From: Naegleria gruberi
Taxonomy: Eukaryota
Assembly (NCBI GenBank): GCA_000004985.1
Contig: GG738855.1
Reading direction: 5' to 3' (one strand)
DNA: 64,000 nt
In this document: one piece after another, positions 2,621 to 49,792 of the stretch
Layout of the letters: each line of letters begins with the position of its first letter
How positions within the stretch are numbered: position 1 is the first letter of the stretch
Notes under the pieces: model-generated
Databases searched by the model: none
What the model was told of the DNA's origin: nothing
What the model saw: the letters and a program-made list of their open reading frames with translations, nothing else
Made by a program: the position numbers and the translations under genes

Positions 2621-3110
2621 TAGAATGTACTCTATGTTTGATATTTTTTTATAATTGAGTTTAGTTAAGTTTCGTTAATTGAATATTTAGTGTCGTGTGT
2701 TAATTTGGTCAACTGACTTTCGCAGTATGCGGTCGTACTTGGAGGTAGTCCTTGTACCAACTATCAACTTTGGTAAGTCATTTAGGATAGTGGTGGACGT
2801 ACTTGTTAGAAACTATTCGAGAAATAGTTTAAAAATTCACCTTAATTAAACACCACATAGTTTTTAAGTCAAAAACCTAAAACATTGTTCAGTTGACCAA
2901 AATGAATTTTAAGTTTAATTTTTCAATCTGTGAATGGACTTGAAAAGCTCATGTGACTTTCAAAATCTATTTTTATTCTTCAAATTCTGAGATGAAACTG
3001 TTTCACACAATAAAATCCATCAAAATTTCAATGATTTCCAAATGAAAAAACAAAAAAACCAAACAATCAGATCTATTGATCGCTAATCTATTGCTAACTG
3101 TGTAAAAATC

Positions 3111-22391: not shown

Positions 22392-22817
22392 TAAAGATGA
22401 TAATTTAGAATTTAATATAATATTTAAATTAAATGATGATGTAATAGATAGTATAATAATATTATATCAATGATTATTATAAATTATATATTGTTATTAT
22501 TATATGAAACTCTATTCGGGACGACGGCTTTTACTTTCGGAGGAGTTTTTTCCTCTTTTTTTGGATTCAATGAAAATAACGACTCGAAATTCACACACTC
22601 TCTAGAAAGAGATTGGAATTGATTGGGTTAGAGGGAGAAACAGAAGGTGAATAGATAATGGAAGAAATTAATAATGAATGTATGAATATATATTGAATGA
22701 ATGTGTTAAACTTTATTGTCGGATGGAGTTTCATAGAGGGATGATGATGAGGAATCAACAATTCCCATGGCAGTAGCATCTTCTTGAGTTGAATTGGAGT
22801 TTTGATGATGATTTTCA

Positions 22818-34400: not shown

Positions 34401-36041
34401 ATTACTTTTATTAATGGAACTAGAATAACTATTGAAACCATAATGCCCTCAAAACAATCACCAACAGGTGGGCAAAAGTTTGTGGTGAGAAAATCTATCC
34501 ACGACTTCTCCCTAATTCAAGAGTCTACCTTTTCAATTTTAACTATTACTAGTAACACCTCACTAGAAATTATAACCCAAACTGAATTGAAATCCTACTT
34601 TTCGATAGGTTCCATTATTGAGTTTTTCACCGAGGACATCTATGTTGGTTCCAGCTCTATTGATATTGAATATTTTCAGGAAAATTACAAGTTTAACATG
34701 TATGATCCTGGTGATAGATGGAAGTCTGTGAGCTACCAACCTTTGACTTCTTTGCAAATTGAGTATGCTTTATTTGTGGTTCCTATAAGGAAAACATTCA
34801 AAACATCTACTACTAGTGCTACCCCACTCGATTTATGTCCAAGAGAGCACTCTTTTCTTCTCAATTCATCATTTCCTGATTTTAAAATAGATCCTCAGAG
34901 ACAACATTATTTCACATGCTCATTAGAGGCCACCAAGGATTGTACTGAATATCCTGAACAAGATTTTTGCCCATCAATATCATTTCTAGATGCAGAGCCT
35001 ACATACAAGTTTGAATTTGATCATCTCTTTCAATTGAATAACAAGTGGAAAACTATGGGTAATTCACTAGAAAAAGACATTGCACTAGGTGGTGCAACAG
35101 AAGTTGAGTATAAATACTCATTCTCTCAGGAGTATCATTTTCAACATGATTCCAGTTCCAATGATGTTGATGCTGAATTTACCAAAGGGTTCAATGTGAA
35201 TTCAAATTCTACATCCAATATATTCAATGGAAGATTGAACTTTTTAGGTAGGTCTCTTGATGATGCTGGAATACCTGCCCATTCTCCAATACTTGATTTT
35301 GAAGTGAAGATTGACCTGTCTCCGTTTTGTGGAGAAGATATTGTCAAGTATGGAGATGGCATTTTACAAGATATATTTTCTGGAATTTTGAAAGAAACAG
35401 GATCTTGGAGATATACCTTTCGAGAGAATGCTAAAAATGCAGAAGGAGCTCAACAATATGCTCGAAAGGTCTTCACCTCTCCTCTCACCATCAAGTGGGA
35501 TCTTTCTACATTGGGAGAGTACAATACGAATGACAAACTAATTTTGAGTCCAGGATACGAATTCGATTTTAGAGCTACTCTGAGAGCTACAAGCGTATAT
35601 TCCTCAGGATTTACTGGAAATGCTGACATTAAGGAGGTGAAATTATCAATTGATAGTACTAGTGTTTCCAAGACAGCTTTAGATTTTTCCAACAGAAATA
35701 AGCTTGTCTTGAATTATATTATTCAAATCGATCTTACCCAGAGTAATCAAGTCTTTCTCATTGCTGAATCATCAGTCTTGCTGGATTTAATGACTGATGT
35801 AGGTGGAGCTATGGGAGTGCTTTCACTTGGTGCATTATTCTTAAAATTCTGGCAAATGCTAGTTGGTCAGCCATCTGTCTTTTTGAGAGATGTTATTTTG
35901 GCAGATGAACGTAAGGAAGAACGAAGAAAAGCCTCTCCAACCTTCCTAGATAGAGTATCTTCATTACTATTTGGTAGGAAAAGGAGAAATAGAATTGCAC
36001 ACTTACATCCTCACTCTCAAGCTGCTTATGAATTGAAATAA
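31461..36041 (+). CDS. Large, 1526 aa, predicted two-pass membrane protein with a huge ectodomain of about 1,300 aa including a Cys-rich module. Family unknown.
   Basis: An N-terminal acidic cytosolic region is followed by TM1 VMGSFVSVIMRFIVIVLIAWKMY. The long ectodomain contains a Cys cluster at residues ~655–800 (WKCSPEKYGDGFCDCDCGF...CSECEGYN). TM2 is FLIAESSVLLDLMTDVGGAMGVLSLGALFLKFW, followed by a basic C-tail. The ORF is continuous. Confidence 0.5.
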   Translation: MEQPECSIPTSATTIQQLPRPPSVMDDDEDIEFEVFNVPKKTSNENLGTFNDNNNISEQVIVDRIPRSNSKSSYSSSQPPVDGVADDVENEDQIEIETTGSSTGSHASTIKYENDKHAQVMAHSEQQFMTASATIIKTNEFDHLFEHSARETEKERKKKDRRIIGHLVRKRVENFLKIFDAYGEGIDGPQIRRKTVMGSFVSVIMRFIVIVLIAWKMYKVLSMTRSEDIGDIISINYNRSGSMYFMDIPTLQMNVSSKILFFERAEDGPSLQRIDIIDMYGLEKTFSTLSPSESFTLRKPLTKSIFGNANIGLNSFFPRNRDAETGFDSVNTFSTKTSTVSSILDPAEALYIQSNQDKDFIEHTVHLYLRFLDNLRGIKPCQLQIGMINSGILALLEDVDEYGNIIFEHQLQSHEDVYFATDSSTWAMSNIIPNETERASPKVLSEGISNSQFYLTTNFTTSNLVSFLQKKSVNGNLRNIAQIFLDRGISLPLFNEWTFIINYMNNFVYTSNKLICDDYEQDIDESSQTNPRLILNNSFIRKKLFPTDVRIISNNLGENDTTVLGFVKGDLSQQPPFYMIIAGFSGHSEVVTVSSMEITQGNNNTDDYRAVLFNVERSTSIPFADVDIYAPDDFQEQVANYQTLTNLPKALPINWIQQGLWKCSPEKYGDGFCDCDCGFVNDTLTVRDIDCNTILPNLFNSENPISKLSKVSCTSKGLLCSNSGQCISPSFIQGSKPCLYKASTFGQKKVTGFFGTTNDFYKSGGGKYCSECEGYNINNEQSTYSSHNSRFMCQVAPKGYVFGIDYLKKIESDTSICFPIRTKVGEMPFPTIISQFEELAMVSINRGMKTKLMNVSETSSINSAKYLSSKNELFGSSAFNIQTICIGKDHEKLASFGRVVSYNPFSKSLIVSKEFGLEFSQRIIPSSVQFYVGKTFSEDVVLDKINQQPLMVQIESLVDMGNYQHLTLQKAVDISMNLYTITFINGTRITIETIMPSKQSPTGGQKFVVRKSIHDFSLIQESTFSILTITSNTSLEIITQTELKSYFSIGSIIEFFTEDIYVGSSSIDIEYFQENYKFNMYDPGDRWKSVSYQPLTSLQIEYALFVVPIRKTFKTSTTSATPLDLCPREHSFLLNSSFPDFKIDPQRQHYFTCSLEATKDCTEYPEQDFCPSISFLDAEPTYKFEFDHLFQLNNKWKTMGNSLEKDIALGGATEVEYKYSFSQEYHFQHDSSSNDVDAEFTKGFNVNSNSTSNIFNGRLNFLGRSLDDAGIPAHSPILDFEVKIDLSPFCGEDIVKYGDGILQDIFSGILKETGSWRYTFRENAKNAEGAQQYARKVFTSPLTIKWDLSTLGEYNTNDKLILSPGYEFDFRATLRATSVYSSGFTGNADIKEVKLSIDSTSVSKTALDFSNRNKLVLNYIIQIDLTQSNQVFLIAESSVLLDLMTDVGGAMGVLSLGALFLKFWQMLVGQPSVFLRDVILADERKEERRKASPTFLDRVSSLLFGRKRRNRIAHLHPHSQAAYELK

Positions 36042-36597
36042 ACATTCCAAGCACCTCTCGCTCTATTAATTAGAAGAATTGATAATTCCTTAATATTATT
36101 ATTTAATATTTTAAAAAACTGTAAAAAATTTCCACACAGATAAGGAACCTTTCAGTCCAGTTATTGCTAGTTTAATGACCACTGCGAAATGGTGTGGGCT
36201 TGAATAATGTATTGGGATGCTTGCTCTAAAACCATTTTTATAGGTTGTGCCCATTATAAGGAAATATTCTCTGGAAAAGGAAGAAATATTCAATATCTGT
36301 TATTATTTGCAATGATGATGGTTTTGTGCCTTATCATGTGCAATAGTGATGATATTACTTCGGATCAATAGATTGGTTAATAGTAGTAGTTGCCACTTCA
36401 TACATTAATAATCGCGAACTAATGCCCTATTGCTTGCCAGGTACGAAATAGTTTTTGGATGCAAAGAAGCCATTCTTGAACTATGAACGGTATTTTGAAA
36501 ATTACAATCCAACGCTTAAAAAATACCTTCTGTTTATTGTGCTGATTAGTGACAGGTCAAAATCCACTGCTAACAACAACTGAACAACAACAAGACC

Positions 36598-38607
36598 ATG
36601 TCGGTTAGGACATCAATAACCGAGCCCAATTTCCATGACAATTTCATTACAACTCTAAATGATTCATCATCATCTTCAAGTCGTCCAGCCACAACAACAA
36701 GTATAGATTTATTCATGAGAGGAGAACCAATTCTTGTAGATTTGCTTTTACATCATGATGAGGATATTTGTCTGCAGGATATTGACGATCATCAGTCGGC
36801 GATGGATAAAGAAATGTCGACAATTACGAATAATCTTCCTCATCAACAACAACATATTATCGGTCAACAACACGAATTATCATCATCACCTGTTGTTGCT
36901 ATTACTTGTACTCCTCCACTACTAACTAATTTAGACATGACATTCAATTATGACAAAACTGATAATCAGCAGCAGCAACAAGAAGTAAATACAACTAATA
37001 GTAATAATATTGTATTTAATAATGATATAGTAATTGTGGAAGATTCTAATAGCAATAATAATAATAATAATAATAATCGAATGAACATGGTGAATATTGT
37101 TGATGGTAGTTCTATTATATTAAATAATACACCTCAACTCTTTATTGAAACAAAACAAGATAATTCTAAAGGGTTAGTTCTACCTTTAAATTTATCTAAT
37201 GATAATTCTCCAGTCAATTCAGAGATTTCATCGGCTGTGAGTGTGACCTCCTATGGGTCAAGTCTTCCATCGACTCCAAATAATTCCCATCAATCTTCAA
37301 GCTTTTTCAATTCATCAACAACAATGGTAACCAATGATGAAACTGATTGGGAAATTATTGTAAAGAATAGAAATGCTCAACAAATAGCACGTATGGCCTC
37401 TGCTACTGGTTTAGTATTTCATAATAATCTATCCTCCTCACCATCAACTACTTCATCTTTATCGTCTTCAAATCTATCAAATCAACATCATCACTGTGTT
37501 ACCACTCCAAAATTGGATACATCTTCTTTAAATGAAACATCATTCAGAAAGAACTTTATCACTCGACATAGTTCTGATCAGAGAATTGCAATCTCTAGTA
37601 ATAATAGTAGTGGTAGTACATGTAATGAAGAGTCCACATTTGGTACTGGGTCAAGCAAGCAGAGAAGCAAGACAAGTTTTTTGTGGGGAAGATCTTTAGA
37701 GAGGAAGAATTCTGCAAACAGCAATACTTGTATGCCTCCAATAGAGGATTCTAAGAATGCTCAACTCGATATTTCGGCCTCTTCAATAGAGAGTAGTGCC
37801 ACCAATGTTGCATCAGATGAGAGCTTTTTAGAGTTTTTACAGAGTGTAGATTGTCGAATGAATGTTATTTCGATAGAGTCAATTGATTCTGCCTCTACAC
37901 AAGACACATCATCCAAAGAGACTTTGAAAAAGTCCAAATTTTGGGATAGACTCAAGATTATCAAAAAGGCAATTAAGAAACAGCTTATGGAAGAAGAAAA
38001 ACCTAACAGCACCCAACAAACACTTCACACTCAACAACCATCTAAACACTCGAGAACCAATAGTATTACAAGTAATCCACATACACTTGATTTGGATTGT
38101 AAAAGTACATCATCTTCCTCTCTGACAAGCGTTAGTGATGAAGACAAGTATACGGTTGTTATTACTAAACCAGCAATAGTCTCTAATAGTGCAATTAGAT
38201 CTGCTGAGGATGAAATGAGACATTGTCTTAATGATCCAATTTGTTTACAATTATTTGATGAATTTTGTTGTCAGGAATGCTCTCAAGAGAATTTACTTCT
38301 TTGGAAGGAGCTCAATAAGGTCAAGACTAATTTCAAGAAACTTTCAGATAAGAGAAGAAGCAAAACCCTTCGAACCATTCACTCGAAATTCTTCTCTGAG
38401 AAGAATGAAAATTTCGATGTAAATGTTAGTGGTCGAACTAAAGTTCAAATAGAGGAACAAGCAAATAGCAAGAGAGTTAGTTTAGCATCTGGCGCACACG
38501 TTTTAAATAGCTTACAACGAGATTGTATCAACAATTTATGTGACAGCTTTTCGAGGTTTATTCTCACTGAGGATTACAAACTATGGAAACAAAACTTTGA
38601 TAGGTAA
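36598..38607 (+). CDS. Ser/Asn-rich protein with a C-terminal RGS domain.
   Basis: Continuous 669 aa ORF with long poly-N/poly-S/Q tracts. The C-terminal RGS box is PICLQLFDEFCCQECSQENLLLWKELNKVK ... LRTIHSKFFSEKNENFDVNVSGRTK. Confidence 0.55.
   Translation: MSVRTSITEPNFHDNFITTLNDSSSSSSRPATTTSIDLFMRGEPILVDLLLHHDEDICLQDIDDHQSAMDKEMSTITNNLPHQQQHIIGQQHELSSSPVVAITCTPPLLTNLDMTFNYDKTDNQQQQQEVNTTNSNNIVFNNDIVIVEDSNSNNNNNNNNRMNMVNIVDGSSIILNNTPQLFIETKQDNSKGLVLPLNLSNDNSPVNSEISSAVSVTSYGSSLPSTPNNSHQSSSFFNSSTTMVTNDETDWEIIVKNRNAQQIARMASATGLVFHNNLSSSPSTTSSLSSSNLSNQHHHCVTTPKLDTSSLNETSFRKNFITRHSSDQRIAISSNNSSGSTCNEESTFGTGSSKQRSKTSFLWGRSLERKNSANSNTCMPPIEDSKNAQLDISASSIESSATNVASDESFLEFLQSVDCRMNVISIESIDSASTQDTSSKETLKKSKFWDRLKIIKKAIKKQLMEEEKPNSTQQTLHTQQPSKHSRTNSITSNPHTLDLDCKSTSSSSLTSVSDEDKYTVVITKPAIVSNSAIRSAEDEMRHCLNDPICLQLFDEFCCQECSQENLLLWKELNKVKTNFKKLSDKRRSKTLRTIHSKFFSEKNENFDVNVSGRTKVQIEEQANSKRVSLASGAHVLNSLQRDCINNLCDSFSRFILTEDYKLWKQNFDR
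37054..37077. repeat. (AAT)n microsatellite encoding poly-Asn inside the 36598 CDS.
   Basis: aataataataataataataataat, read directly from the sequence. Confidence 0.9.
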
Positions 38608-38785
38608 ATTTTGGAAAATCAATACCCCAAAGTTAAATTTGTGTAAATATTTGAAGAGAGTGAATTCAAAAGGATTCAATTATTTCAATTTTCTTTAATT
38701 AAACTTGTTTTTAATTACAATTAATTTGATTATTATTATGGCGCCATGATGAACTCGAATTAAAATAAAAAATAAATATTAAAAA

Positions 38786-39538
38786 ATGTCTCAAGATCAA
38801 ACGGAAAAGCTTTTGAGAAAAAGATCAACATCAAGTGGTTTGAAGATTATTGGTAATTATCAAATTTTAAATGGCGGAATATGTTTATTATGATGATCAG
38901 TTCCTGAACCTGTTTTTAAAAAGTTGGATTTACAAACTGTTTCTACTCTGATCGGAAAGGAAAATGCTTTGTTTATTGATGTAAGGTATGATTATTATTG
39001 TTGTATTTTATAAATCAACATCATCATGATTGTACGATCGGATCATCATAGAGATGAAGACTATGAAGGAGGTCATATTAAGGGATCTATTCATCAACCA
39101 TTTTCTTCTTTCGATGAGTTGTGTCCATCTCTTGTTACCCTTGTTGAAGAGAAGGCATCCACTTTGGACACTCTTGTTTTCTATTGTATGTTTTCGGAAC
39201 AAAGATCTCCTCAGTGTGCTGCTGCTTTTGCTGAAAAGATTTCTGGAAACAAGGCTTTGGAACATTTAAAGATGTAAGTTATTGGATAATTTAATGTATG
39301 ATTAATTGTGATGATCGGATTAATGAATTGTAATATGCTATTATTATAATAATAATATTATAGAATTATTCTTTCTGGAGGATTTAATTCATTCTTGAAA
39401 AAGTATACACCACCAAATGATCTTATTGAGGAATATAATGCTGAATGTTATAAGGAAGTTGATGGACAATTATTGCACATGATCGATGCTCAGTATTTGG
39501 ATGTCATTACCGATAAGAATGTCAGTGTTAGCGAATAA
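38786..39538 (+). CDS. Small rhodanese-fold Cdc25/ACR2-like phosphatase, four exons (about 38786..38851, 38899..38986, 39049..39276 and 39360..39538).
   Basis: The spliced product is MSQDQTEKLLRKRSTSSGLKII / VPEPVFKKLDLQTVSTLIGKENALFIDVR / DEDYEGGHIKGSIHQPFSSFDEL...LVFYCMFSEQRSPQCAAAF...LEHLK / IIILSGGFNSFLKKYTPP.... The CX5R active-site loop is C-MFSEQ-R, and DVRxxxEYxGGHIxGS is typical of the Cdc25 / arsenate-reductase ACR2 / Ych1 family. All introns have GTA(A/T)G donors and AG acceptors with consistent phases. Confidence 0.6.
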
Positions 39539-39596
39539 AATAGCTAGCTCAGAAATTAAGATCTAGTAGTAAAACTGCAGATGAGGAACCACAATT

Positions 39597-42500
39597 TTAT
39601 TTCTTTTTTCGTTTGAAAAATTGGAAAGCAGATGAGGAACCACTATCTGAAGAGGAGCCTCCCTTCTCAAGGGATTGAGTAAGCATTTCAATAATGTCGT
39701 CACAAGGAACATGAGACGATTTGGCAATATCTAATGGTGTTTTACCTTGCTTATTTTTCAAGTGTAAAACCTTGTACATTAATGTTTGTTTTGGTTCTAC
39801 TCTTGGACTCGATAGATTTGTAGTTGAAGCACTTCTACTATTTTCTCTTGGTGTTGAAAGGAGACCTCCTGAAGTTGGAGTGGTATTTTGATTTGGTGAT
39901 AAATTTGCAACAGAGCTAGCTGCAACACTAGGTCTCTTGTTCATTTGAACACCAACAATATTATACAGTGATAGGAGATATCTTACAGCAAATGTATTGC
40001 TGTCGCTACAAGCATATGCAAGACAAGTTTGATGTTTGTCATTATCTGGTTCCATCAACAACTCATTGAGGACTTCAATATTTTCTTGAGACTCTTCGTC
40101 ATATTTTTGTTTTTCTGCAAGCTTTTGTTCTGGTGTGAGCTCTACATTCTTTGGTGCTAATCTGAGGGCCGATCCTAATGTACTCTTTCTAGGTTGAAGT
40201 AGCTCATTAATAATCAATTGCATGGATTTCAAATCACCCTTAATTACACAATCGTGTAGAATATTTCTTCCATGATAATTTTGACTCTTCAAAACTTTAA
40301 TGAATTGCTCTCTAGAAATGTATGGCAAAATTGCCTCCAAAATTGGTTGTTTTCGTTTCAGTACACTGTTGTTGTTACTTTCTGTTGATGAATTGTTGGT
40401 TTGAGAATTATTCTTGCTTAGTTCAGGATTGAGTTTCTTAGCTCTCTCTGAAGGATCATTGTAAAACAAGTCACGAGCCTCTTGTTCACTCAAGCCATAG
40501 AATTTTTTAGCTGAGAGAATGAGTGTCTTGGTTGACCATCCCATTTGAGGAACAAGCAACTCCATGGCTTTGAACATAATATTCTTCTTCAATTGGAATT
40601 CATCTTGAAGGAAGTGACTAATGTGATTAGGGAATCTAGAACCATTTGTATTGGTTTTGGAATTGGCTGGAGAGGGTGATGAATTATTTTGAATTGGGCT
40701 TGATTTAATCTTGATAGAATCTTCAAGAAGGACACCTTGTTGATTACTGGTATAACCTCCTCCTGCCATTCCATTAATACCTGAAAGAGCAGCCAATGAG
40801 TCTGATCTCATTTTGAGTGCAGCAGGAAGCTTGAGAGGTTCTCTCTTCTTTCTTCTATCGTTTGTTAAGAGTTTGTTCTTATTTTCATAATTGACTTCAC
40901 CAGATTCACCAACAAACATTTCATCCAATTCTTGGAAAATATCAGCAGAAACGTCAGTATCACAACTAGAAACACTAGTTGTTGGTGATGGAGCTCTATT
41001 CGAAATTGGAGTATTATCACTATGTTCTGATGATTGTTTAACTGAGTCAACTCTAGGTGAGTCATATTTAGTTGATTCATTGATGGTATCCTCATCTTTT
41101 TCCTTGGACATTTCATGTTCGAGAAGGAATTCTTCAATCAAAAGTAAATCTTCATCTGGTACTTGAGATGATTCTCTCTTTGATTCTACCGATTTTTCAT
41201 CAGCAGCATTAATTACATCCTTTGTTGAGTTTTGTGAGGAGAGAGTTCTTGGTGAAGGTTGAGTTGGCACTTGTTGTACCTCAACTTCTCTCCCAACAAG
41301 ATTGAAGAGTGGAACACATCCTTTTTGATCCTTCTTTAGTAAAATAGCTCCCTTCTGAATGAGATAAACTATTCTATCCAATGGTAATTCGAAACAAGCA
41401 CGGTGCAACATGGTTTCACCTCCACGAATTGTAGTATCCAATGAAGCACCAAACAAAATGAGCATGTCACACACTGCAAAGCAACCTCTCTTCAATGCTA
41501 CATAAAATACATTGTATCCAAATTCATCATCCACTTGTTGAATAATCTTTTCCAATGCATTGTTATTATATGGAGATGAAGCTCCAGTAGCAGGAGATGA
41601 ACTAGTTGGTGAAGGAACATCTGCCTTATTCTTATTACCGAAAAAGCTCTTTCTTCCAGAGCCTCCTCCACTATTAGAATGTGGATTGGCCACAAGTTCT
41701 GATCCATTTCTAGCTCTTGAAACTCCTGTCTTGATTGTTGAACTCTTAATTTTCGTACACAAGAATGCACAGCTCTCAGTAGCATTAAAGAAGGAAGTAT
41801 AAAAGAGTGGAGTCATTTTCATGGCATCCGAAACAAATAAGAAATCAGGTCCACATTCATCAAATAACCATTCCATAATAACACTCTGATTGTACTTGGA
41901 TGCCAAGTGCATTAGTGTACACTTTTGAATAGAATTAAACTTGGTATTGAGTAAATATTTAGTCCACAATAATTTCAAAGATGGTTCCGTTGCAAATTTA
42001 AATTGTTTCCAAGTGTCGAGAACGTCCTCTTTCATGGAGGTAAATTCCTTCCTTGACATGACTTCAACTTCACGTGTAGGTGATCCAGTACTACTTGATG
42101 GACTGCCAAGAGATTGGAGGTCTGCGAATCTAGTACTGTTCCTGTTTAGTTTTATACTATTTCTATTAACACTGAGACTGTTACTGACAGTAAGAGTTGA
42201 TGATTCGTTACCACTCAATTTCATAGATCCAGTTGTAAAGAAGAAGAATCTAAAGTAGAGTAATTGTTTCAATCGGTAGAGAGAATGAATAGAAATGTGA
42301 TAGAGACCACTCAAGTCCATTAAAGCACTTCCCTTTGAAGATAATACCGAAGTTGTGGTATCTAAAATTATTGATTTGGCACTAGTTTCCGCAACTGTAT
42401 CTTTTTCAATCAATGGCTCAACTTGGCTGGTTTCGTTTGCTTTCGAATGCTTTCTGTTAACTTTCTTCTTCTTGGCAGATAAATGTTGTGATGATGGAAC

Positions 42501-43085
42501 AAAGCAATTCAACACCAACTCCTTCCAAGTATCTTCATCCAACGAAGAAGCATCTAAATTATCAAAGAATTGAGCCACTTTAACAATATCAATATCATTA
42601 TAAATTGTTGTACTATTTGTACTTCCGTGATAACTGTGAGTAGAACTACTTCTACTCAGAAAACCATTTCCACTCAACTCTCCCATATCATCGACCAGTT
42701 TACCAATTTGGTCTAAATTCATTGGAGTTATTGGAGATGAATAATTATTATTAACATTTTCAATGGATTGTCTGTTTGTTTGACTCGGTGTTATTGTTGT
42801 TGTTGATGGTGGCATCATTGGAGTAGTGTGATTATTATTATTTGATGAAGGAGTTGAAAATTGGTTATTATTATTTGGAGGAGAAGTGGTAGTTGAGTAG
42901 TGGTGGTTATCAGTTGTTGTTATTATTGAAGAAGTATTCGTCATTATGGAAGCCTTTCGAGGGGTAGAAGGAGAGTTAGCAGAGTTTAATGTAATGGTTT
43001 CATCGGTGGTGGTAGAAGTATTACTAATGGGCTGTTCAGGTTGAGTTATTCTGGATGATGATGTTGATGATTCTATTGAAGTCAT
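39597..43085 (-). CDS. Ankyrin-repeat protein with a long Ser/Thr/Asn-rich N-terminal region.
   Basis: Continuous 1162 aa ORF. Ankyrin-like repeats include TLMHLASKYNQSVIMEWLFD, GYNVFYVALKRGCFAVCDMLILFGASLD, GETMLHRACFELPLDRIVYLIQKGAI, HGRNILHDCVIKGDLKSMQLII and NKQGKTPLDIAKSSHVPCDDIIEML. Confidence 0.5.
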   Translation of the reverse strand: MTSIESSTSSSRITQPEQPISNTSTTTDETITLNSANSPSTPRKASIMTNTSSIITTTDNHHYSTTTSPPNNNNQFSTPSSNNNNHTTPMMPPSTTTITPSQTNRQSIENVNNNYSSPITPMNLDQIGKLVDDMGELSGNGFLSRSSSTHSYHGSTNSTTIYNDIDIVKVAQFFDNLDASSLDEDTWKELVLNCFVPSSQHLSAKKKKVNRKHSKANETSQVEPLIEKDTVAETSAKSIILDTTTSVLSSKGSALMDLSGLYHISIHSLYRLKQLLYFRFFFFTTGSMKLSGNESSTLTVSNSLSVNRNSIKLNRNSTRFADLQSLGSPSSSTGSPTREVEVMSRKEFTSMKEDVLDTWKQFKFATEPSLKLLWTKYLLNTKFNSIQKCTLMHLASKYNQSVIMEWLFDECGPDFLFVSDAMKMTPLFYTSFFNATESCAFLCTKIKSSTIKTGVSRARNGSELVANPHSNSGGGSGRKSFFGNKNKADVPSPTSSSPATGASSPYNNNALEKIIQQVDDEFGYNVFYVALKRGCFAVCDMLILFGASLDTTIRGGETMLHRACFELPLDRIVYLIQKGAILLKKDQKGCVPLFNLVGREVEVQQVPTQPSPRTLSSQNSTKDVINAADEKSVESKRESSQVPDEDLLLIEEFLLEHEMSKEKDEDTINESTKYDSPRVDSVKQSSEHSDNTPISNRAPSPTTSVSSCDTDVSADIFQELDEMFVGESGEVNYENKNKLLTNDRRKKREPLKLPAALKMRSDSLAALSGINGMAGGGYTSNQQGVLLEDSIKIKSSPIQNNSSPSPANSKTNTNGSRFPNHISHFLQDEFQLKKNIMFKAMELLVPQMGWSTKTLILSAKKFYGLSEQEARDLFYNDPSERAKKLNPELSKNNSQTNNSSTESNNNSVLKRKQPILEAILPYISREQFIKVLKSQNYHGRNILHDCVIKGDLKSMQLIINELLQPRKSTLGSALRLAPKNVELTPEQKLAEKQKYDEESQENIEVLNELLMEPDNDKHQTCLAYACSDSNTFAVRYLLSLYNIVGVQMNKRPSVAASSVANLSPNQNTTPTSGGLLSTPRENSRSASTTNLSSPRVEPKQTLMYKVLHLKNKQGKTPLDIAKSSHVPCDDIIEMLTQSLEKGGSSSDSGSSSAFQFFKRKKK

Positions 43086-43513
43086 CTCGTTTGTTTTATT
43101 TGAAATAATAATGTGTGTATATATATTCGAAGAAAGTATTACTCGAGGTGTTTTTGTAGAGCAAAATTTCTTCTTCTTGAAAGATAATATTATATCTTGT
43201 GATTTGGCAAACGGTTTTTGAATTTGATTTTTTTAACCGGAATGTTGGTGATGATTGTTAATTTGCGCCAAGTTTACTTGTGCTATTTTGTGTGGTGGAA
43301 AAATGAGAGTGCTGACACTAAACATGGACAAACCAAATGGGTTGTTTGATGCTAAGAAAGTTATTGAACTCTAACAATTAATTGGCTATTCGTTTCGTTT
43401 AGTTTATTTGATGGGATAACAAAATTTCTGCTTTTAAACAGTTTGAAAATCGATCGACTTAGACAATCATTAGTATTTAATGAGTTTCATGGATTTTCAT
43501 TCAAATATGTGTG

Positions 43514-43534
43514 GGGGTCATGGCGCAGTCGGTA
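43514..43534 (+). tRNA. 5' fragment of an elongator tRNA-Met(CAU) gene: acceptor 5' strand, D-stem and D-loop.
   Basis: GGGGTCA-TG-GCGC-AGTCGGTA is the acceptor strand, positions 8–9, the D-stem and the D-loop with a pol III A-box (TGGCGCAGTCGG). It pairs with the 3' fragment at 44387..44441. Beyond nucleotide 21 the sequence diverges. Confidence 0.6.
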
Positions 43535-43550
43535 TTATTAATAGATTTTA

Positions 43551-43585
43551 GGGTAGGTAACGCTCTCAATCTACCTCAACGTAAC
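43551..43585 (+). repeat. Motif copy A: GGGTAGGTAACGCTCTCAATCTACCTCAACGTAAC.
   Basis: Shares GGTAGG..GCTCT...TCAACGTAAC with copies C and D, and is followed by TTTAAAT as in copy C. Confidence 0.5.
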
Positions 43586-43616
43586 TTTAAATATAAACTT
43601 TATTTATTTTTAGAAA

Positions 43617-43647
43617 GGGTGGTTTGCGCTCTCAAGCAATGTTGCTC
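43617..43647 (+). repeat. Motif copy B (degenerate): GGGTGGTTTGCGCTCTCAAGCAATGTTGCTC.
   Basis: Shares GGTTTGCGCTCT.AAG with copies C and D but lacks the CAACGTA tail. Confidence 0.4.
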
Positions 43648-44006
43648 TTTAATGTACTGTTGCTATACTTTACATTGAATTGAATTTATTGATTAATTAT
43701 TTCAACTTTTGAAGATTTCTTACTATTTTTCATACTATTAATAATTTTTAATTTTCTTTCTTTTCTTAATTCTTCATCATATTCAATTTCTTCTGTATAA
43801 AAACTAATATCACTATAATTTAAATTTGATTGTTTGGAATAATTTGGAAAATAATTATTTTCTGATTCATTAAATTCTTGAATTGTTTTTGATATTTTTT
43901 CAATTTCATTATCAATAAATTCATAAATTTGTTCATGTTTTTTAAAATTAATTTTCATTGATAAAATTAAATTTAAAAATAATAATCCTTTTCTAAAAAT
44001 AGATAA

Positions 44007-44041
44007 GGTAGGGTTGCGCTTTCATTAATACTCAACGTAAC
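44007..44041 (+). repeat. Motif copy C: GGTAGGGTTGCGCTTTCATTAATACTCAACGTAAC.
   Basis: The first 14 nt, GGTAGGGTTGCGCT, are identical to copy D. It ends TCAACGTAAC followed by TTTTAAAAT. Confidence 0.55.
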
Positions 44042-44357
44042 TTTTAAAATAAAAAACTTACCCAAAAATTTTACATTGAAAATTATCATCTTCAGATTTA
44101 AAATTAATTAAATTAATTTCATCTGATAAATTTGTTTCATCAATATGTTCTCTAAAATTTTCATTTGTTGTAAAAATTAAAAATGAATTTGAATTATGAA
44201 TTATATCTTCTCCTAATTCATCTGAAATTTCACTAATTCTAATTATTTGTAAATTTTTAATTATTGAATATAATCTTCCAAAATTAATACAAATTGGTGA
44301 ATGTTTACAATTTGATTTAATTATAAATGTATCATTATCTTTTAAATAATAAAATTA

Positions 44358-44389
44358 GGTAGGGTTGCGCTCTTAAGTATATCAACGTA
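44358..44389 (+). repeat. Motif copy D: GGTAGGGTTGCGCTCTTAAGTATATCAACGTA, abutting the tRNA-Met 3' fragment.
   Basis: It contains the GCGCT...AGCGC inverted repeat. Its terminal GTA is shared with the tRNA D-loop. Confidence 0.55.
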
Positions 44390-44441
44390 GCGCGTAGGTC
44401 TCATAATCCTAAGGTCGTGAGTTCGATCCTCACTGACCCCA
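44387..44441 (+). tRNA. 3' fragment of elongator tRNA-Met(CAU): D-stem 3' strand, anticodon arm, variable loop, T-arm and acceptor 3' strand.
   Basis: The sequence is GTA-GCGC-G-TAGGT-CTCATAA-TCCTA-AGGTC-GTGAG-TTCGATC-CTCAC-TGACCCC-A. The anticodon loop CU-CAU-AA carries CAU (Met). The T-loop GTTCGATCC is a canonical B box. The acceptor strand TGACCCC complements GGGGTCA at 43514. A T6 run follows at 44444..44449. Confidence 0.65.
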
Positions 44442-44443
44442 AC

Positions 44444-44449
44444 TTTTTT
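44444..44449 (+). terminator. Pol III terminator T-run (TTTTTT) three nt after the tRNA-Met 3' end.
   Basis: ccccaAC-TTTTTT-g, read from the sequence. Pol III terminates at T-runs of four or more. Confidence 0.5.
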
Positions 44450-44988
44450 GCTAGTTGGATCTAACAAATTCTAGAATAGCACCATTTATTGAAACAGCTT
44501 GCCATACAAATTCTCTATCTCTTTTCAAGGCATTAATCAAAATTTTGTGGTTCAAGTTTGATCGATTCCTATGCTAATTACCTGTCATATCTAAATTGCT
44601 CTCGAACAAACCTCAATACTAACCAATCCTTGAAGGAGTTCAATGTCATTTCTCAATCTTTCAAGAAATAAACTGAATGGCTAATCCAGATGATTTCAGT
44701 CTTTCAATCACTTGATGCATATGTAAACAAGAACCAGTTCCGTCTTCTAAAGATTTATATCCATTAAAGCAGGTCTCAAGGCTGAATCACCTTAAAGGTG
44801 AAACAGTCCCTGAGCTTTAATACCCATTAGTATAATTACTTGTTCTCAATCTTGTTTTTATTAATTTGCAAGGTAACATCTTCAATTCATTAGATCCATA
44901 TGAATATGATCTTGGTCTAGAATCTTATTATTCTCTGAGAAGGATTTATGTTTTGCACGATTTTGCCTTAATTGCAACATACACACCA

Positions 44989-45071
44989 GCCCGCGTAGCA
45001 GAGTGGTCAAATGCGTAAGACTTAAGATCTTATCCCGAATGGGTTCGTGGGTTCGAACCCCACCGCTGGCA
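44989..45071 (+). tRNA. tRNA-Leu(UAA), type II with a long variable arm.
   Basis: The sequence is GCCCGCG-TA-GCA-GAGTGGTCAAA-TGC-G-TAAGA-CTTAAGA-TCTTA-TCCCGAATGGGTTC-GTGGG-TTCGAAC-CCCAC-CGCTGGC-A. The anticodon stem is perfect (TAAGA/TCTTA) and the anticodon is UAA. The 14 nt variable arm has a CCC/GGG stem. The T-loop is canonical. The acceptor stem has one C4:U69 mismatch. A T-run lies at about 45086..45091. Confidence 0.75.
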
Positions 45072-45351
45072 TTTCCTTTTCTTTTTTGTTTTCTGTGCAT
45101 TGGTGATGTCTTTGCAACTTGAATGGAAAGTTTTCTGAATTTGAATTATATTCTTATAGACCAGATGCTTTTCCAATAACTATAATAACTCATAAAAACA
45201 GATTCCTTCCTTGAAAAAGCTTTTAATTATATTAATTTTCCAAGAGAGAATTCAAAGAGCTATTTTCTACATGGCTTGTCCATTATGATTGATTCAAAAC
45301 TCATAAGGTCTTTGCCTTAATTATATTTTCTTTATTTATTACAACAACTGA

Positions 45352-46100
45352 TTAATCTTTACTGATATACCGAATTTCACAATCTTTAAAAAAAAATGAA
45401 ATATAACAAAAAAATCTACACAATCCTTCTAAGGTATCTAGATTTGTGCAATATATATCAACCTCATTAATTAATCTCTCACCCATTAGAATGAAGGCAA
45501 TATAAACTCTCTCGTAATTCATCATAAAAAATAAATTATTACTTGATCTCTTGTCCACACTTTTTTCGAAATGGTATTTCAGCATAGAAAAGAATAAATT
45601 CTTTACCTCAGTTTCATTTTCAAAATCACAATTATCCAAATTACGTTTTGAAAATTTACCATAAATATTATTTCCAATTACAATCATTTCTTCATCCAAT
45701 CAAACATTTTTTTGGTTGATACTTCTTGTTCTTTTCCTTGAGAGGAAGAAACCATTTTGATAATACTATTTCTATAATACTATCCTGAACAATATAACTC
45801 TACTGCTGTAGTATTACCCGTATGATCATATATGGTTTCCCACCACGAAGACGTCTTTTCCTCATCCAATGAACATTTATGCAAAAATTCAACCCATGGA
45901 TGTCAAGGTTCACTCTCTATCATGTCGAGAGGAATTTTATGATTAAATATTCCCAATTTTTCATTGAATTTATACTGAGGGTCTTTCTGATAAAACGTGT
46001 TTTCCTCAATTCCGAAGGTGTAAATTTGTGCATTATTTTTACTTAATTTTACAAAACTAAGGAGTGACTTAGGAATCATCCAACCATTGTGTAGGATTTA
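45352..46100 (-). pseudogene. Cluster of short, stop-interrupted minus-strand ORFs downstream of tRNA-Leu. Possibly a degenerate gene or a relic of a tRNA-associated element.
   Basis: ORF 45352..45699 (115 aa) plus at least three further in-frame stretches of 20–60 codons (e.g. ...NAQIYTFGIEENTFYQKDPQYKFNEKLGIFNHKIPLDMIESEP*, HPWVEFLHKCSLDEEKTSSWWETIYDHTGNTTAVELYCSG*). Each ends in a stop, with no clean splice signals linking them. Confidence 0.2.
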
Positions 46101-46371
46101 TAAACATGTATTGATGGCTGAACAACATGAGTATTATGTCTAAATGTACACAACCTCAGCCAATAAAAAGTCATCAATTTGTTATAATAGATATATATTA
46201 TGAGTGGTAAAATATTTATTTGCCAACAGTAGATGGTGATAGTTAAAATTGATCAACAATAGTTGCTCCACAAATTGAGGATCATCCACTACTGAAGCGC
46301 TTATGAAGTTTGTCGCACAAAAACGCAATCGATTATCAACAATCATTACAAAATTCTAAAAAAAAATGCTC

Positions 46372-47563
46372 TCTTGGTTAAATGGTGATTCAGCAAATGT
46401 TTTTTCCTTTCCGTCTAAACCAGAGGTAACAATTTTGAAGGAACCACAAAGTTCTGACTCTCCTATTATTGTTGATGGTATTAAATTATTTTCATACAAG
46501 GGTTTGTTTTAATTGCATGTCATGATGGATTGACCAGTAGTATAATAACTGTAACTCTCTTTTGTATTGAAAACTTCATCAAATTAATTATCAATCATTT
46601 GATACAAACAAACAAATGGAATTACAATGTTGGTTGGTTAATGAATCATTGAAGATATACTTGCCATTCGTGAGGAAATAGCAAACGAGGAGGATTATGA
46701 AATTCTCTATGAGGAACCTGAAAATTATCGTAAAATGTTCATCAAGAAGAGAGGAGAGGGTTCAACAGGTGAAATTAAACGACACAAATATACTAGAACA
46801 AATTTTCCATCCTCTCCAAAGGAAATGTTTGTTGCTGTTAGGGATTTTGAGAGGAGAAAGAGTTGGGATGACAGACTGGAGGAGAGAAATGTCATGAGAG
46901 TTTTTAAATTTACTGATAAGGAGTAGGTTTCTTTTTGATGATTGGATAATCTTATCCTAAACCTATTTTTGTTATTACGGATCGATGTTATATTGTATCA
47001 CAATACTACTCTACTATATTAATTACTGATGATAATTTAAATTATAACTATGATGTAAATAATTATTTAGAACTGGTAAAGTTGTTATCAATTCAATTGA
47101 GAGAACTGCACATAAGGGTGCTTTTCCTGTTCAAGGAAGAGATTTCATATCTCTTACTGGTGTTGTTATTATGAATGAAAATCACTACTTGACTCGTTCT
47201 CATGCCCTCGAATACAGTTTACTTCCATACGCCACAAATGGAAATAAGAAGGAAAATCCACCTCCTCTTCCACAAGATAAATATGGACCTTCTGAGGGTT
47301 TCAATGGTTACATTAGAGGTTGTAACAAGTTTTTTGCAAATGAATGTTTTGGAAATGAAACAACAACTACTTACACAACAGTTTTAGAGACTGATGTTCG
47401 TGGTTGGGTTCCATCAACAGTTTATAATTGGTTTGTAAAATTTATTCCTGCCAATGGTGAAGTCAATCTAGGAAAAGGATTGGAATGGAGAAGGACAAAC
47501 TCAATTTCAAACGAATTGAATGATTTTTATTATAATATTGATTCACCATTGTTTAAATAGTGG
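46372..47563 (+). CDS. START-domain (StAR-related lipid transfer / Bet v1-like) protein, three exons (about 46372..46499, 46638..46922 and 47071..47563).
   Basis: The spliced product is MLSWLNGDSANVFSFPSKPEVTILKEPQSSDSPIIVDGIKLFSYK / DILAIREEIANEEDYEILYEEPENYRKMFIKKRGEGSTGEIKRHKYTRTNFPSSPKEMFVAVRDFERRKSWDDRLEERNVMRVFKFTDKE / ETGKVVINSIERTAHKGAFPVQGRDFISLTGVVIMNENHYLTRSHALEYSLLPYATNGN...TDVRGWVPSTVYNWFVKFIPANGEVNLGKGLEW. The pattern (R..WD, a VRG[WF][IV]P block near the C-terminus) matches START domains. Donors are GTTTGT and GTAGGT, acceptors are AG, and the phases are consistent. Confidence 0.55.
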
Positions 47564-47668
47564 ATTACATCCATGTAATTAATTGTATATATAGAACTAT
47601 ACTTGTAAATATATTCCTTTAAATTATTTGATTTTATAAATCAGTTTGTAATAAATTTCCGTTACAAT

Positions 47669-49363
47669 TTATTTACGATTGATAAATTTTTGAATTGGAA
47701 TTGCACCACTATCACTACCTGTTGCGATACATTTAATAAATTCAGTTGGTTCCAACATTGTAATATCACAAAAGTATTTAAATCTATTTGCAACATATTG
47801 AGCTTCCTTATATCCCATAAATTGAGTGAGATAGTCAACTTGTTGATCGTCCTCTTGGTAGCTTTGTTCCAATTTCTTCAAAAATGACTGGACAAGTAGT
47901 GAATTAATAAAGTGTGCTTCCTCAAAAAGTGTTGGGAACGCCTTAGAAAAGGTATAGCCCTTCTTCCATACTGCATTTCTCTTTTGATTACTCGAGTAAA
48001 TGTCCATATAATATTGATCATAATCCAAAATTAGATATTTCTCACTGTAGTACAAGGTTCTGAATCCTACATTATTGGAAAATACTGGCGAAACTGACAA
48101 TCCAACCATGGCAAAATTATTCTTGGTGTTACCCAAATCATTAACCTTATTGGGTTGTTGGTTTCTGAATAATCTGAATTGATCCTTATGCAAGTGACCG
48201 TACAGAATGGTGGTAATCATTTCACTATATTTTGACACAAGTGCCAAGAATTGAGATTCATACATTGGCTTCCACAATGATTTGTTATCAAATGAATTTT
48301 GACTTGCTGGAATATGGGTTACAATGTAAACAGTTACATCTCTAATTGAGAGTTCACTTCTTGCCTTTAACAATTCCATTTCCATCCAGGCAAGTTGTCC
48401 TGATGGATCACTTGGTGGCTCAGCTCCATTTGTCATATTTGGATATCTATTCGCAGAGTATAAAAGTGAATTTAAAACAAGAATAACCAACTTGGATTCT
48501 CTTCCCTGAGAAGTCTTGACAATTTCATACTTGTAATATCCACCCTTCAAGAAGGTATTTCTTTGATAGTCCTCAGTGAGTCCAAACATTTTTCCCCATC
48601 CAACAGGTCCAGTCCACAAACTTTGATACCAAGTCAAAGCTTCATTTCCATGATCAGGATCTTCAATATATGGCAAATAATAATCAGGATACAAATCATT
48701 ATTTCCAATGCATGGCAATATTGGCAAATCATAAACATTTAACTGTTTTGCCAAGGTAGATTGCAACATTTTCGTCACATCCAATGTATTTTGCAAAACA
48801 AATGATCCATTAGGCAAGTGATGAGCATTGTAATCTCCATTCATGACAATAAAATCTGGTAAAATTCCATTATGCTCCCTAATAACTTGTGCAATTTGTG
48901 AAAATGTGCTTTCCACAAGTGTCTTTGGAGCATCACATCCATATCTTCCGTACATTGCATAATCAGTAAAATTCGTATCAATTCCCTCGAAAGAAGGTGA
49001 ACTAGAATTACGAATCAAAATTTTTCTCTTTTCCTCAATAAACAAAAAATCTTGGATTTTTTGTTTGGTATTTCTCAAATGATGAAACTCTTGTTGAACA
49101 CGTTCTGGCTGATTTTCCGTAACTACTTGTTGTGGTTTTCTACAAAAGTATTGATGATTAGGAATGGTTGGATCATAGAATGGATCATAGTGAATATCAG
49201 TCATCCACAAAAAGTAACCAAATGCCGATTGTTCTCCTCCTCGTGATTTTAATGATGAGAATTTATTAACTTGTTGTGTTGTTGAACATATTGTTGAAGA
49301 AAACAACAAAATGATGAAGAAGGAGAATAAATAATTGGGTGATGATGAAACATGTTGAGACAT
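47669..49363 (-). CDS. Secreted acid sphingomyelinase-like phosphodiesterase (calcineurin-like metallophosphoesterase).
   Basis: Signal peptide MSQHVSSSPNYLFSFFIILLFSSTICS. Metallophosphoesterase motifs WMTDIHYDPFY, VMNGDYNAHH, CIGNNDLYPDYY and GHLHKDQF are in the order typical of ASM / SMPDL3 proteins. Continuous 564 aa ORF. Confidence 0.75.
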   Translation of the reverse strand: MSQHVSSSPNYLFSFFIILLFSSTICSTTQQVNKFSSLKSRGGEQSAFGYFLWMTDIHYDPFYDPTIPNHQYFCRKPQQVVTENQPERVQQEFHHLRNTKQKIQDFLFIEEKRKILIRNSSSPSFEGIDTNFTDYAMYGRYGCDAPKTLVESTFSQIAQVIREHNGILPDFIVMNGDYNAHHLPNGSFVLQNTLDVTKMLQSTLAKQLNVYDLPILPCIGNNDLYPDYYLPYIEDPDHGNEALTWYQSLWTGPVGWGKMFGLTEDYQRNTFLKGGYYKYEIVKTSQGRESKLVILVLNSLLYSANRYPNMTNGAEPPSDPSGQLAWMEMELLKARSELSIRDVTVYIVTHIPASQNSFDNKSLWKPMYESQFLALVSKYSEMITTILYGHLHKDQFRLFRNQQPNKVNDLGNTKNNFAMVGLSVSPVFSNNVGFRTLYYSEKYLILDYDQYYMDIYSSNQKRNAVWKKGYTFSKAFPTLFEEAHFINSLLVQSFLKKLEQSYQEDDQQVDYLTQFMGYKEAQYVANRFKYFCDITMLEPTEFIKCIATGSDSGAIPIQKFINRK

Positions 49364-49792
49364 TTTTTAATAATTTAAAATTTTCAAATAACTATTTTGA
49401 AAATCTACCAATATTTTCACATGGTGCATGTGCTGAGAATGTTAATATTGCTGATATTTGAATAATTTAATTTTATTAAGGAATTTGTAAAATTTTATTA
49501 AAAATAATTAAATATTCGTTTTTAAAAGAAAAGGAGAAAATTAAGAAATAAACCCTTAACTCCTTATCTTACACAACAAAACAATCAAAATAAACACTAT
49601 TAATATTGATAATACTAATAATATATCCAGATGAAAAAGAAGAACTTTTAATATCCATTTTTGAACCTTTCCAATCTTTATGAACAAAAACAGGCTCCAA
49701 AATAAATTTTTAGAAAACTAGTCGCACAAAATGCCGACCTTAAAATATCCAAATAAGCGCAGTAAATTTGTATAAAATAAAATCATAAAAAA

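Follow-up and report, generated by a model that had tools for sequence, protein, structure and literature searches.

An AT-rich protein-coding insertion with repeated, partly intron-like units in the D loop of a Naegleria gruberi tRNA-Met gene

The window considered here, a 64,000-nucleotide stretch of contig GG738855.1 (GenBank assembly GCA_000004985.1), is nuclear DNA of Naegleria gruberi NEG-M, with eight of its open reading frames (ORFs) identical to annotated NEG-M proteins (613-kb scaffold), and these exact protein matches led to the rejection of a bacterial or yeast source. Within it lies an elongator tRNA-Met(CAT) gene of the eukaryotic type, the D loop of which is interrupted by an insert at 43535–44389 that carries two long minus-strand ORFs and four copies of a repeated unit. 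The best explanation, advanced here tentatively, is that a piece of a gene with introns, derived from an extremely AT-rich element, was inserted here recently, and that at least one of the repeated units is an apparent spliceosomal intron. The oddity is real, but it is most likely the outcome of an ordinary insertion event and not of a new mechanism. The event is of a known kind, of which this is a further example. Beyond what had been read from the sequence alone, the analysis adds a coding signature, a reading frame common to both ORFs, and an in-frame GT-AG join.

The tRNA-Met gene is on the plus strand, in two pieces. The 5' fragment (43514–43534, GGGGTCATGGCGCAGTCGGTA) comprises the 5' strands of the acceptor and D stems together with the D loop as far as A21, and holds the A box, while the 3' fragment (44390–44441) comprises the 3' strand of the D stem, the anticodon arm with its CAT, the variable loop, the T arm with the B box, the 3' strand of the acceptor stem and the discriminator A. 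Joined to one another, the two fragments give a clean 73-nt tRNA-Met that has its anticodon at position 34 and forms a standard cloverleaf, and an RNA polymerase III (Pol III) terminator of six T residues is found 3' of the gene at 44444–44449. It is taken to be an elongator rather than an initiator tRNA on the basis of its G1-C72 pair, a T54-containing T loop (GTTCGATCC), a U31-U39 mismatch, and an anticodon stem without three G-C pairs. As it stands, the interrupted gene is called by neither ARAGORN nor Rfam, the latter giving a partial tRNA match over the 3' part (44386–44435, 25.6 bits).

The insertion point is between A21 and G22 of the tRNA, with no tRNA nucleotides lost. The trinucleotide GTA is present at both junctions (43532–43534 and 44387–44389), which read GCAGTCGGTA/TTATTAATAG and TATATCAACGTA/GCGCGTAGG, so the position of the junction is ambiguous by 3 nt, and the first GTA copy is either one half of a target-site duplication or a junction microhomology. 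A sequence-only reading of the window had placed the insert at 43535–44386; the element is the same, with its end now moved to 44389 to include the second GTA, giving 855 bp with one GTA copy counted. The sense strand of the insert is antisense to the tRNA. On the tRNA-sense strand there are 18 runs of four or more T residues, the first at 43546, only 12 nt in, and the A and B boxes are now ~900 bp apart. Pol III should therefore fail to make the tRNA, and the insertion almost certainly inactivates this tRNA-Met copy. For the organism the effect would be nil, as this is one dead copy among ~900 tRNA genes.

The insert is set apart from its surroundings by base composition. Its GC content is 20.2% over the 855 bp, the mean of the 64-kb window being ~33%, and in 200-bp steps the GC content is 14–23% within the insert versus 30–36% directly outside it on both sides. 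It is the sole stretch of several hundred bases in the window below 22% GC. The only other 300-bp windows under this value, at 22201–22500 and 49251–49650, are short, lie at the ends of long ORFs, and are far smaller than the insert.

Both ORFs are encoded on the minus strand. ORF1 (43686–43958) has 90 codons, an ATG start and a TAA stop, just as the sequence-only reading described it. ORF2 (44058–44354) consists of 98 stop-free codons (44061–44354) followed by a TAA at 44058–44060; the strand and the lack of any Met in the translation had been recognised correctly, and the coordinates and length (44057–44347, ~97 codons) have been revised. ORF2 has no ATG, GTG or TTG start. In 2000 dinucleotide-preserving shuffles of the insert, its longest stop-free run (111 codons) was matched in 0.4% of cases and its second longest (98 codons) in none. 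The GC content at the three codon positions is 25/23/1% in ORF2 and 26/16/4% in ORF1, and 38–40/33–41/26–29% in the three adjoining host genes. Only five of the 188 third positions in the two ORFs are G or C, which, given the composition of the ORFs themselves, has a binomial probability of 1.7e-9. The window has 112 stop-free stretches of 80 codons or more, and of these ORF2 and ORF1 have the lowest GC content at third positions (GC3), ORF2 being the lowest of all; the next-lowest value is 14.6% and the median 31.5%. Three-base periodicity of this kind arises from selection on protein sequence under very strong AT mutation pressure, and both minus-strand frames are genuine coding sequence. 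With a GC3 of 1–4%, against 26–29% in the host genes, the DNA is foreign to this nucleus: it evolved outside it, or at any rate not as ordinary nuclear DNA. The two ORFs show no similarity to one another as paralogues (BLASTP E = 7.5), and AlphaFold gave an unusable model for ORF2 alone (pLDDT, the predicted local distance difference test score, of 44).

ORF1 and ORF2 lie in one and the same minus-strand frame, and the way in which ORF2 ends suggests how they may be connected. The 3' end of ORF2 reads TTT GG/G TAA GT (the slash marks the proposed splice boundary), with the stop codon situated inside a consensus splice donor, G/GTAAGT, and this donor is the sole GTAAGT or GTATGT of the insert on either strand. 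The frame reopens 69 bases downstream, after CCTACCTTATCTATTTTTAG. The interval in question, 43993–44061, coincides exactly with one of the repeated units, termed C', and reads G/GTAAGT...CCTACCTTATCTATTTTTAG/A; its donor fits the consensus and its 3' end is rich in pyrimidines. When 44062 is joined to 43992, GG and A form a Gly codon, the frame continues as KGLLFLNLILS, and the ATG of ORF1 follows; together, 44354–44062 and 43992–43686 encode an uninterrupted product of 199 aa. Read in this way, ORF2 would be an internal exon ending at 44062, and ORF1 would belong to a second exon spanning 43686–43992. A length of 69 nt is within the size range of Naegleria introns, the median in N. lovaniensis being 80 bp (PMC6125883). 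The one host intron read in the window for comparison, in the kinesin gene EFC47404 (53434–53482, minus strand, GTATGT...TTCAG), is 49 nt long. From its sequence, C' is an apparent spliceosomal GT-AG intron.

The four motif copies are a true repeat family. A repeat search grouped the copies at 43550, 43616, 44006 and 44357 (referred to as A to D) into a single 21-nt family, and this search, a mismatch scan and pairwise alignments all bear out the earlier description of an insert organised by four motif copies, with small coordinate corrections only. The motif length of ~33 nt given there proved too short, as the aligned units are in fact ~50–76 nt. The 14-nt core reported as identical in C and D, GGTAGGGTTGCGCT, has just two exact occurrences in the 64 kb, at 44007 and 44358, within a 15-nt exact core that the two copies have in common. 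Allowing up to three mismatches, the 14-mer has four matches versus 0.69 expected, a number reached in none of 100 shuffles; three of these matches are copies B, C and D and the fourth is an unrelated site at 32631, whereas matching copy A requires more than three mismatches. Local alignments of all pairs were compared with shuffles, and the resemblance is strongest for A–C (score 44 vs 15.3 +/- 2.5 in shuffles) and C–D (38 vs 14.2 +/- 2.5), both at p<0.001, followed by B–C and B–D (p=0.004) and by A–B and A–D (p~0.025), with the similarity of copy B confined to its 5' half. As had also been read from the sequence before, the stretch TCAACGTAACTTT(T)AAA is common to A and C, and D continues directly into the tRNA.

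Extended to their full length, all four units (A' to D', minus strand) lie in the sense orientation of the ORFs. Unit A' (43535–43597, core 43551–43585) is degenerate, and its minus-strand 3' end forms the left boundary of the insert; it aligns with C' over ~63 nt, nearly end to end. Abutting it, and 12 nt past the stop codon of ORF1, is the most diverged unit, B' (43598–43673, core from 43617). Unit C' (43993–44061, core 44007–44041) is the 69-nt intron-like interval, GTAAGT...CTATTTTTAG, and overlaps the stop codon of ORF2. In comparison with C', unit D' (44339–44389, core 44358–44389) lacks the first ~22 nt, being cut at TACGTTGA by the right insert boundary, and its minus-strand end, TTTAAAAG, lies just inside ORF2. 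The 5' end of the unit reads (G/A)TAA(A)GT in A', B' and C'. Taken unit by unit, GT...AG ends are found only in C': D' is truncated, B' reads GTAAAG...AAAG and follows a stop codon, and A' has neither end.

Nothing in the units points to a structural RNA or to a tRNA ancestry, both of which the sequence-only reading had considered. The hairpins that it noted in A and D do exist, but they differ between copies and are no more stable than shuffles (z-scores -1.8 to +0.6), and the hairpin in D takes its 3' arm from the D stem of the tRNA (the GCGC of the tRNA); the suggestion of structural sites thus finds no conserved or unusually stable fold. Likewise, the proposal of degenerate tRNA-derived fragments fails in local alignments of the units to tRNA-Met on both strands, which were no better than shuffles (p 0.5–0.96), and ARAGORN (default settings) and Rfam detected nothing resembling a tRNA or a transfer-messenger RNA inside the insert. 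No bacterial terminators were found in the insert, promoter-like sites are at background level, and the repeat search found no inverted repeat pairing the two insert ends. On the sense strand the unit core (44007–44021, minus-strand reading) is (G)AGCGCAACCCTACC, and includes GAGCGCAACCC, a sequence conserved in the 16S rRNA of bacteria and organelles as the '1100' stretch; as Rfam has no small-subunit rRNA match at E<=10, this is treated as a probable coincidence.

Searches for relatives of the insert and for its donor found neither. In a word search of 5.8 billion proteins, ORF1 and ORF2 had no match at E<=1; Naegleria is represented in this collection, other queries having returned entries from N. 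gruberi and N. fowleri. For both ORFs Pfam and PHROGs yielded sub-threshold noise only, and the PDB held no relatives. A full HMMER scan of 1.84 billion representatives returned one match, between residues 33–91 of ORF2 (44081–44258) and a 1318-aa protein with 13 near-identical BRC-type repeats (P0013; 63 bits, E-value 2e-12). This is treated as spurious, as the score adds up one weak match (~28 bits by BLASTP) repeat by repeat, and the residues of the BRC signature are missing from ORF2. At the nucleotide level, a two-part pattern describing the unit had no matches in IMG/VR and none in GTDB genomes; its two matches in JGI metagenomes were set aside as chance, both falling in the same GC-normal and apparently protein-coding stretch. 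Scans of the tblastn type with the ORFs in IMG/VR and GTDB, and blastn searches of phage and plasmid collections, also recovered no relatives. Exact-protein look-ups of ORF1 and of one neighbouring gene in other assemblies found none, ORF1 alone not being on record, and a search with the neighbouring ankyrin-repeat protein for a comparative locus returned only itself. Nothing similar to the units or to the insert was found elsewhere in the 64 kb, and an Rfam cmscan of 43300–44700 at E<=10 detected no ribozyme, group I or group II intron, or other family in the insert. With regard to possible donors within the organism, the ribosomal DNA (rDNA) plasmid was rejected on composition, its non-rDNA part being 36.7% GC (PMC5805870). 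A BLAST survey of the mitochondrial DNA (mtDNA; NC_002573) against the N. gruberi nuclear genome found no nuclear mtDNA copies (numts) (PMC2820518), and the donor is probably not mtDNA; nor were capsid-gene viral insertions found in N. gruberi (PMC11702301).

Taken together, these observations are best, if still tentatively, explained by a young insertion of foreign, AT-rich coding DNA into the D loop of one tRNA-Met gene, antisense to it. The insert would be the 3' part of a single gene from an AT-rich element that was exposed to the nuclear spliceosome, such as a virus, a plasmid or a transposon. In this gene C' would be a 69-nt GT-AG intron separating two consecutive exons, ORF2 and ORF1, of a product of at least 199 aa, and D' would be the 3' part of the intron before ORF2, truncated where the insertion boundary falls, which would account both for the missing start codon of ORF2 and for the truncation of D'. 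Downstream of the stop codon, B' and A' would be decayed copies of the unit. The units themselves may be introner-like, self-similar non-coding elements of the donor, and neither tRNA relics nor structural RNA. The most likely route of integration is the capture of a DNA fragment at a double-strand break in a heavily transcribed tRNA gene, with end joining via the 3-nt GTA/TAC microhomology. That the event was recent is argued by the undamaged tRNA stems, and by two long ORFs that are open in stop-prone, AT-rich, neutrally evolving DNA.

Several points weigh against this account. A GTAAGT occurs somewhere on the relevant strand in 22% of shuffles of the 855 nt, so the splice-site argument depends on the position of the GTAAGT and on the frame match, both of which were judged after the fact. 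Since each of the three full units starts with (G/A)TAA(A)GT at its 5' end, the apparent donor may be nothing but repeat sequence. Usable GT...AG ends are confined to one unit of the four, and B' and A' lie after the stop codon, a location unusual for introns in a compact genome. The left boundary is the end of A', and units lie at or near both ends, as in a defined mobile element, for which the GTA could be a true 3-bp target-site duplication. Furthermore, the account is built on a single insert copy, for which the searches brought up no donor, and Naegleria is not known to host any nuclear-replicating element with ~3% GC3.

The two main rivals depart from this account only in the role given to the units or in the way the fragment moved. 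A doubtful reading, though one to be taken seriously, is that the insert is an unspliced two-gene fragment of an AT-rich replicon (a cytoplasmic giant virus, a plasmid, an organelle-like genome or an endosymbiont), integrated by break repair. The units would then be intergenic signals for promotion, termination or processing, a single unit standing before each gene and a pair behind the last of them; the GTAAGT would then be coincidental, and ORF2 would have a non-ATG start or have lost its start. A GC3 of 1–4% is typical of organellar, endosymbiont or AT-rich viral genes, ORF1 has an ATG of its own, and a unit precedes each ORF at a similar distance from the ATTATTATTT(T)AAA stretch. The recurrence of (G/A)TAA(A)GT at the start of A', B' and C', and the fact that one GTAAGT per 855 nt is not rare, are equally at home in such a scheme. 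It is harder to reconcile with an ORF2 without ATG, GTG or TTG, with ORF frames that match across exactly the GT...AG interval, with the lack of bacterial-type terminators and of promoter-like sites above background, and with the failure to find a relative in IMG/VR, GTDB, or the phage, plasmid and protein collections; surveys reporting neither numts (PMC2820518) nor capsid-gene insertions (PMC11702301) in N. gruberi tell in the same direction. That the insert is itself a numt, its units being mitochondrial intergenic elements, is very improbable. The mtDNA of N. gruberi is ~22% GC, the base composition and GC3 of the insert are like those of organellar genes, and GAGCGCAACCC is like a conserved small-subunit rRNA stretch; set against this are the survey count of zero numts, the lack of a protein match at E<=1 although N. 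gruberi mitochondrial proteins should be in the collection, and the lack of any rRNA or tRNA signal in the insert.

Rather unlikely, in turn, is a non-autonomous copy of an uncharacterised mobile element that targets the D loop of tRNA-Met genes, in which the units would be recombinase or transposase sites, the GTA a crossover or duplicated target, and the ORFs passengers or remnants. This would suit the precision of the insertion, with no tRNA nucleotides lost and a 3-nt direct repeat at the junctions, as well as the placement of directly oriented units, with A and B at the left end or close to it and D likewise at the right, the end of A' being the boundary. Direct subterminal repeats without inverted terminal repeats are also a feature of IS607-like serine-recombinase elements. 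With ~924 tRNA genes in N. gruberi (PMC2888827) the target would be a harmless one, and DNA transposons internal to tRNA genes do exist (Dada; PMC8869645). Set against such an element are the single copy, with nothing similar elsewhere in the 64 kb; the lack of a transposase or recombinase, and of any significant Pfam or PHROGs family for the ORFs; the internal unit C, unexpected for end-binding sites; the truncation of D in comparison with A and C, which leaves no complete end; and the finding that a circular junction of the insert ends would have only GTA in common with the tRNA target. Scarcely credible is the idea that the motif copies are degenerate tRNA fragments, or that the insert is a functional tRNA intron, whether of group I or endonuclease-spliced. 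The copies start with GGTAG, as at the boundary of the tRNA D loop and D stem (GGTAGCGC), and the tRNA halves are undamaged, but no unit aligns to the tRNA above shuffles, no Rfam intron or ribozyme is present at E<=10, and the intron mode of ARAGORN finds no gene. The site, 21/22 and not 37/38, and the 18 T runs on the tRNA-sense strand, the first of which should already stop Pol III 12 nt in, mean that the insert is not a tRNA intron.

Capture of foreign DNA of this kind has precedents. In yeasts, organellar, plasmid and viral DNA has reportedly been captured at chromosomal breaks, giving rise to numts and 'NUPAVs' (work attributed to Ricchetti et al. 1999 and Frank & Wolfe 2009). Like those captures, the tRNA-Met insert is a foreign, AT-rich and partly coding fragment of less than 1 kb, with the recipient sequence kept, a gene truncated at its edge, no terminal inverted repeats, and a junction microhomology (GTA here, 0–4 nt there). 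Unlike them, it lies inside and not beside a tRNA gene, carries a repeated unit with one intron-like copy, and has a donor that is apparently neither the mitochondrion nor the rDNA plasmid.

A second point of comparison is provided by protist rDNA. Johansen and colleagues are reported to have described mobile group I introns in Didymium rDNA with antisense protein genes that themselves hold small spliceosomal introns. The insert resembles these in residing in a protist structural-RNA gene and in bearing an antisense ORF that is apparently interrupted by an intron of ~50–70 nt; it differs in having no ribozyme and no homing-endonuclease motif or family, and in being hosted by a Pol III tRNA gene instead of rDNA. 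Self-splicing introns of group I or II were rejected, as cmscan (43300–44700, E<=10) found no intron family and the GC content is 20%. Removal of the whole insert as a spliceosomal GT-AG intron was likewise rejected, its ends not fitting. Introner elements are spliceosomal introns that multiply within one genome and so form families of near-identical copies (PMC12768974). Several sense-oriented copies of one short family in or beside one gene, one with GT-AG ends and an in-frame junction, recall such elements, whereas the usable splice sites in only one copy of four, the two copies after the stop codon, and the lack of any copy elsewhere in the window do not. A literature search found no report of introners in Naegleria.

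Amongst mobile elements, the Dada DNA transposons use fixed sites inside tRNA and small nuclear RNA genes (PMC3706591, PMC8869645). They are known from animals, encode a DDE transposase, produce duplications of 6–7 bp, and insert in the anticodon stem or at nucleotides 8–13 (PMC8869645). Dada copies are numerous at one and the same site of an RNA gene family; this window has a single tRNA-Met gene. The insert shares with Dada the choice of a multicopy small-RNA gene, in which one loss is harmless, and a precise insertion with a short direct repeat. It departs from Dada in a repeat of at most 3 nt, in its site at 21/22, and in having no detectable transposase and no terminal inverted repeats, and Dada membership was ruled out on the GTA-only repeat, the other site and the lack of a transposase. 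Helitrons were rejected, as no 5'-TC...CTRR-3' ends are present in any GTA register on either strand and the hairpin at the D end needs host bases, as were Tc1/mariner (TA) and PIF/Harbinger (TWA) elements, whose end sequences do not fit. IS607-like elements have a serine recombinase gene, direct subterminal repeats, a crossover identity of ~2 bp, and no target duplication. By comparison, the insert has no recombinase, and its direct repeats near both ends and short GTA are compatible with such an element.

The insert is of value as a marker. A GC3 of ~3%, intact frames, and no relative among billions of proteins suggest that NEG-M was recently in contact with an undescribed genetic element. 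If the 69-nt unit is truly spliced, this element lives in the nucleus and carries repeated introns, which bears on the spread of introns. If further copies were to be present in other tRNA-Met genes, they would define a new target-specific element in a deep-branching eukaryote. There is a slim chance that the insert belongs to a Naegleria element so far unrecognised, its gene interrupted by self-similar, introner-like spliceosomal introns. The element would be either a mobile one homing to the tRNA-Met D loop or a relic of a nuclear-replicating, extremely AT-rich virus or plasmid of the EG strain lineage. If so, an introner-type family and an insertion element internal to a tRNA gene would both be reported for the first time in Heterolobosea.

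The genes that flank the insert are ordinary eukaryotic ones, encoding an RGS-domain protein, an ankyrin-repeat protein, and an acid-sphingomyelinase-like phosphoesterase. Downstream of the split tRNA-Met by 547 bp, and likewise on the plus strand, the tRNA-Leu(TAA) gene at 44989–45071 is intact, and the two form a small tRNA gene pair in which the disruption is confined to the Met member. Synteny with N. fowleri (L003, 1–21920) over 31461–49363 of the window is partial and rearranged. The order in N. gruberi is a 1526-aa ORF, the RGS protein, the ankyrin protein (minus strand), tRNA-Met with tRNA-Leu, and the metallophosphoesterase (minus strand), and in N. fowleri a CHD-type helicase, the metallophosphoesterase and the RGS protein, in a block without tRNA genes. 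The 1526-aa ORF matches the N. fowleri helicase in size, and the likeness is by size alone. As the syntenic block of the downstream-gene orthologue is rearranged and without tRNA genes, the N. fowleri locus is silent on the date of the insertion. Further out in the window, two matches to C/D-box small nucleolar RNAs, at 2902–2989 (plus strand) and 47107–47189 (minus strand), scored 28 bits (snoZ182) and 26 bits (snoR1), respectively; though below the gathering scores, they are possibly real Naegleria small nucleolar RNAs.

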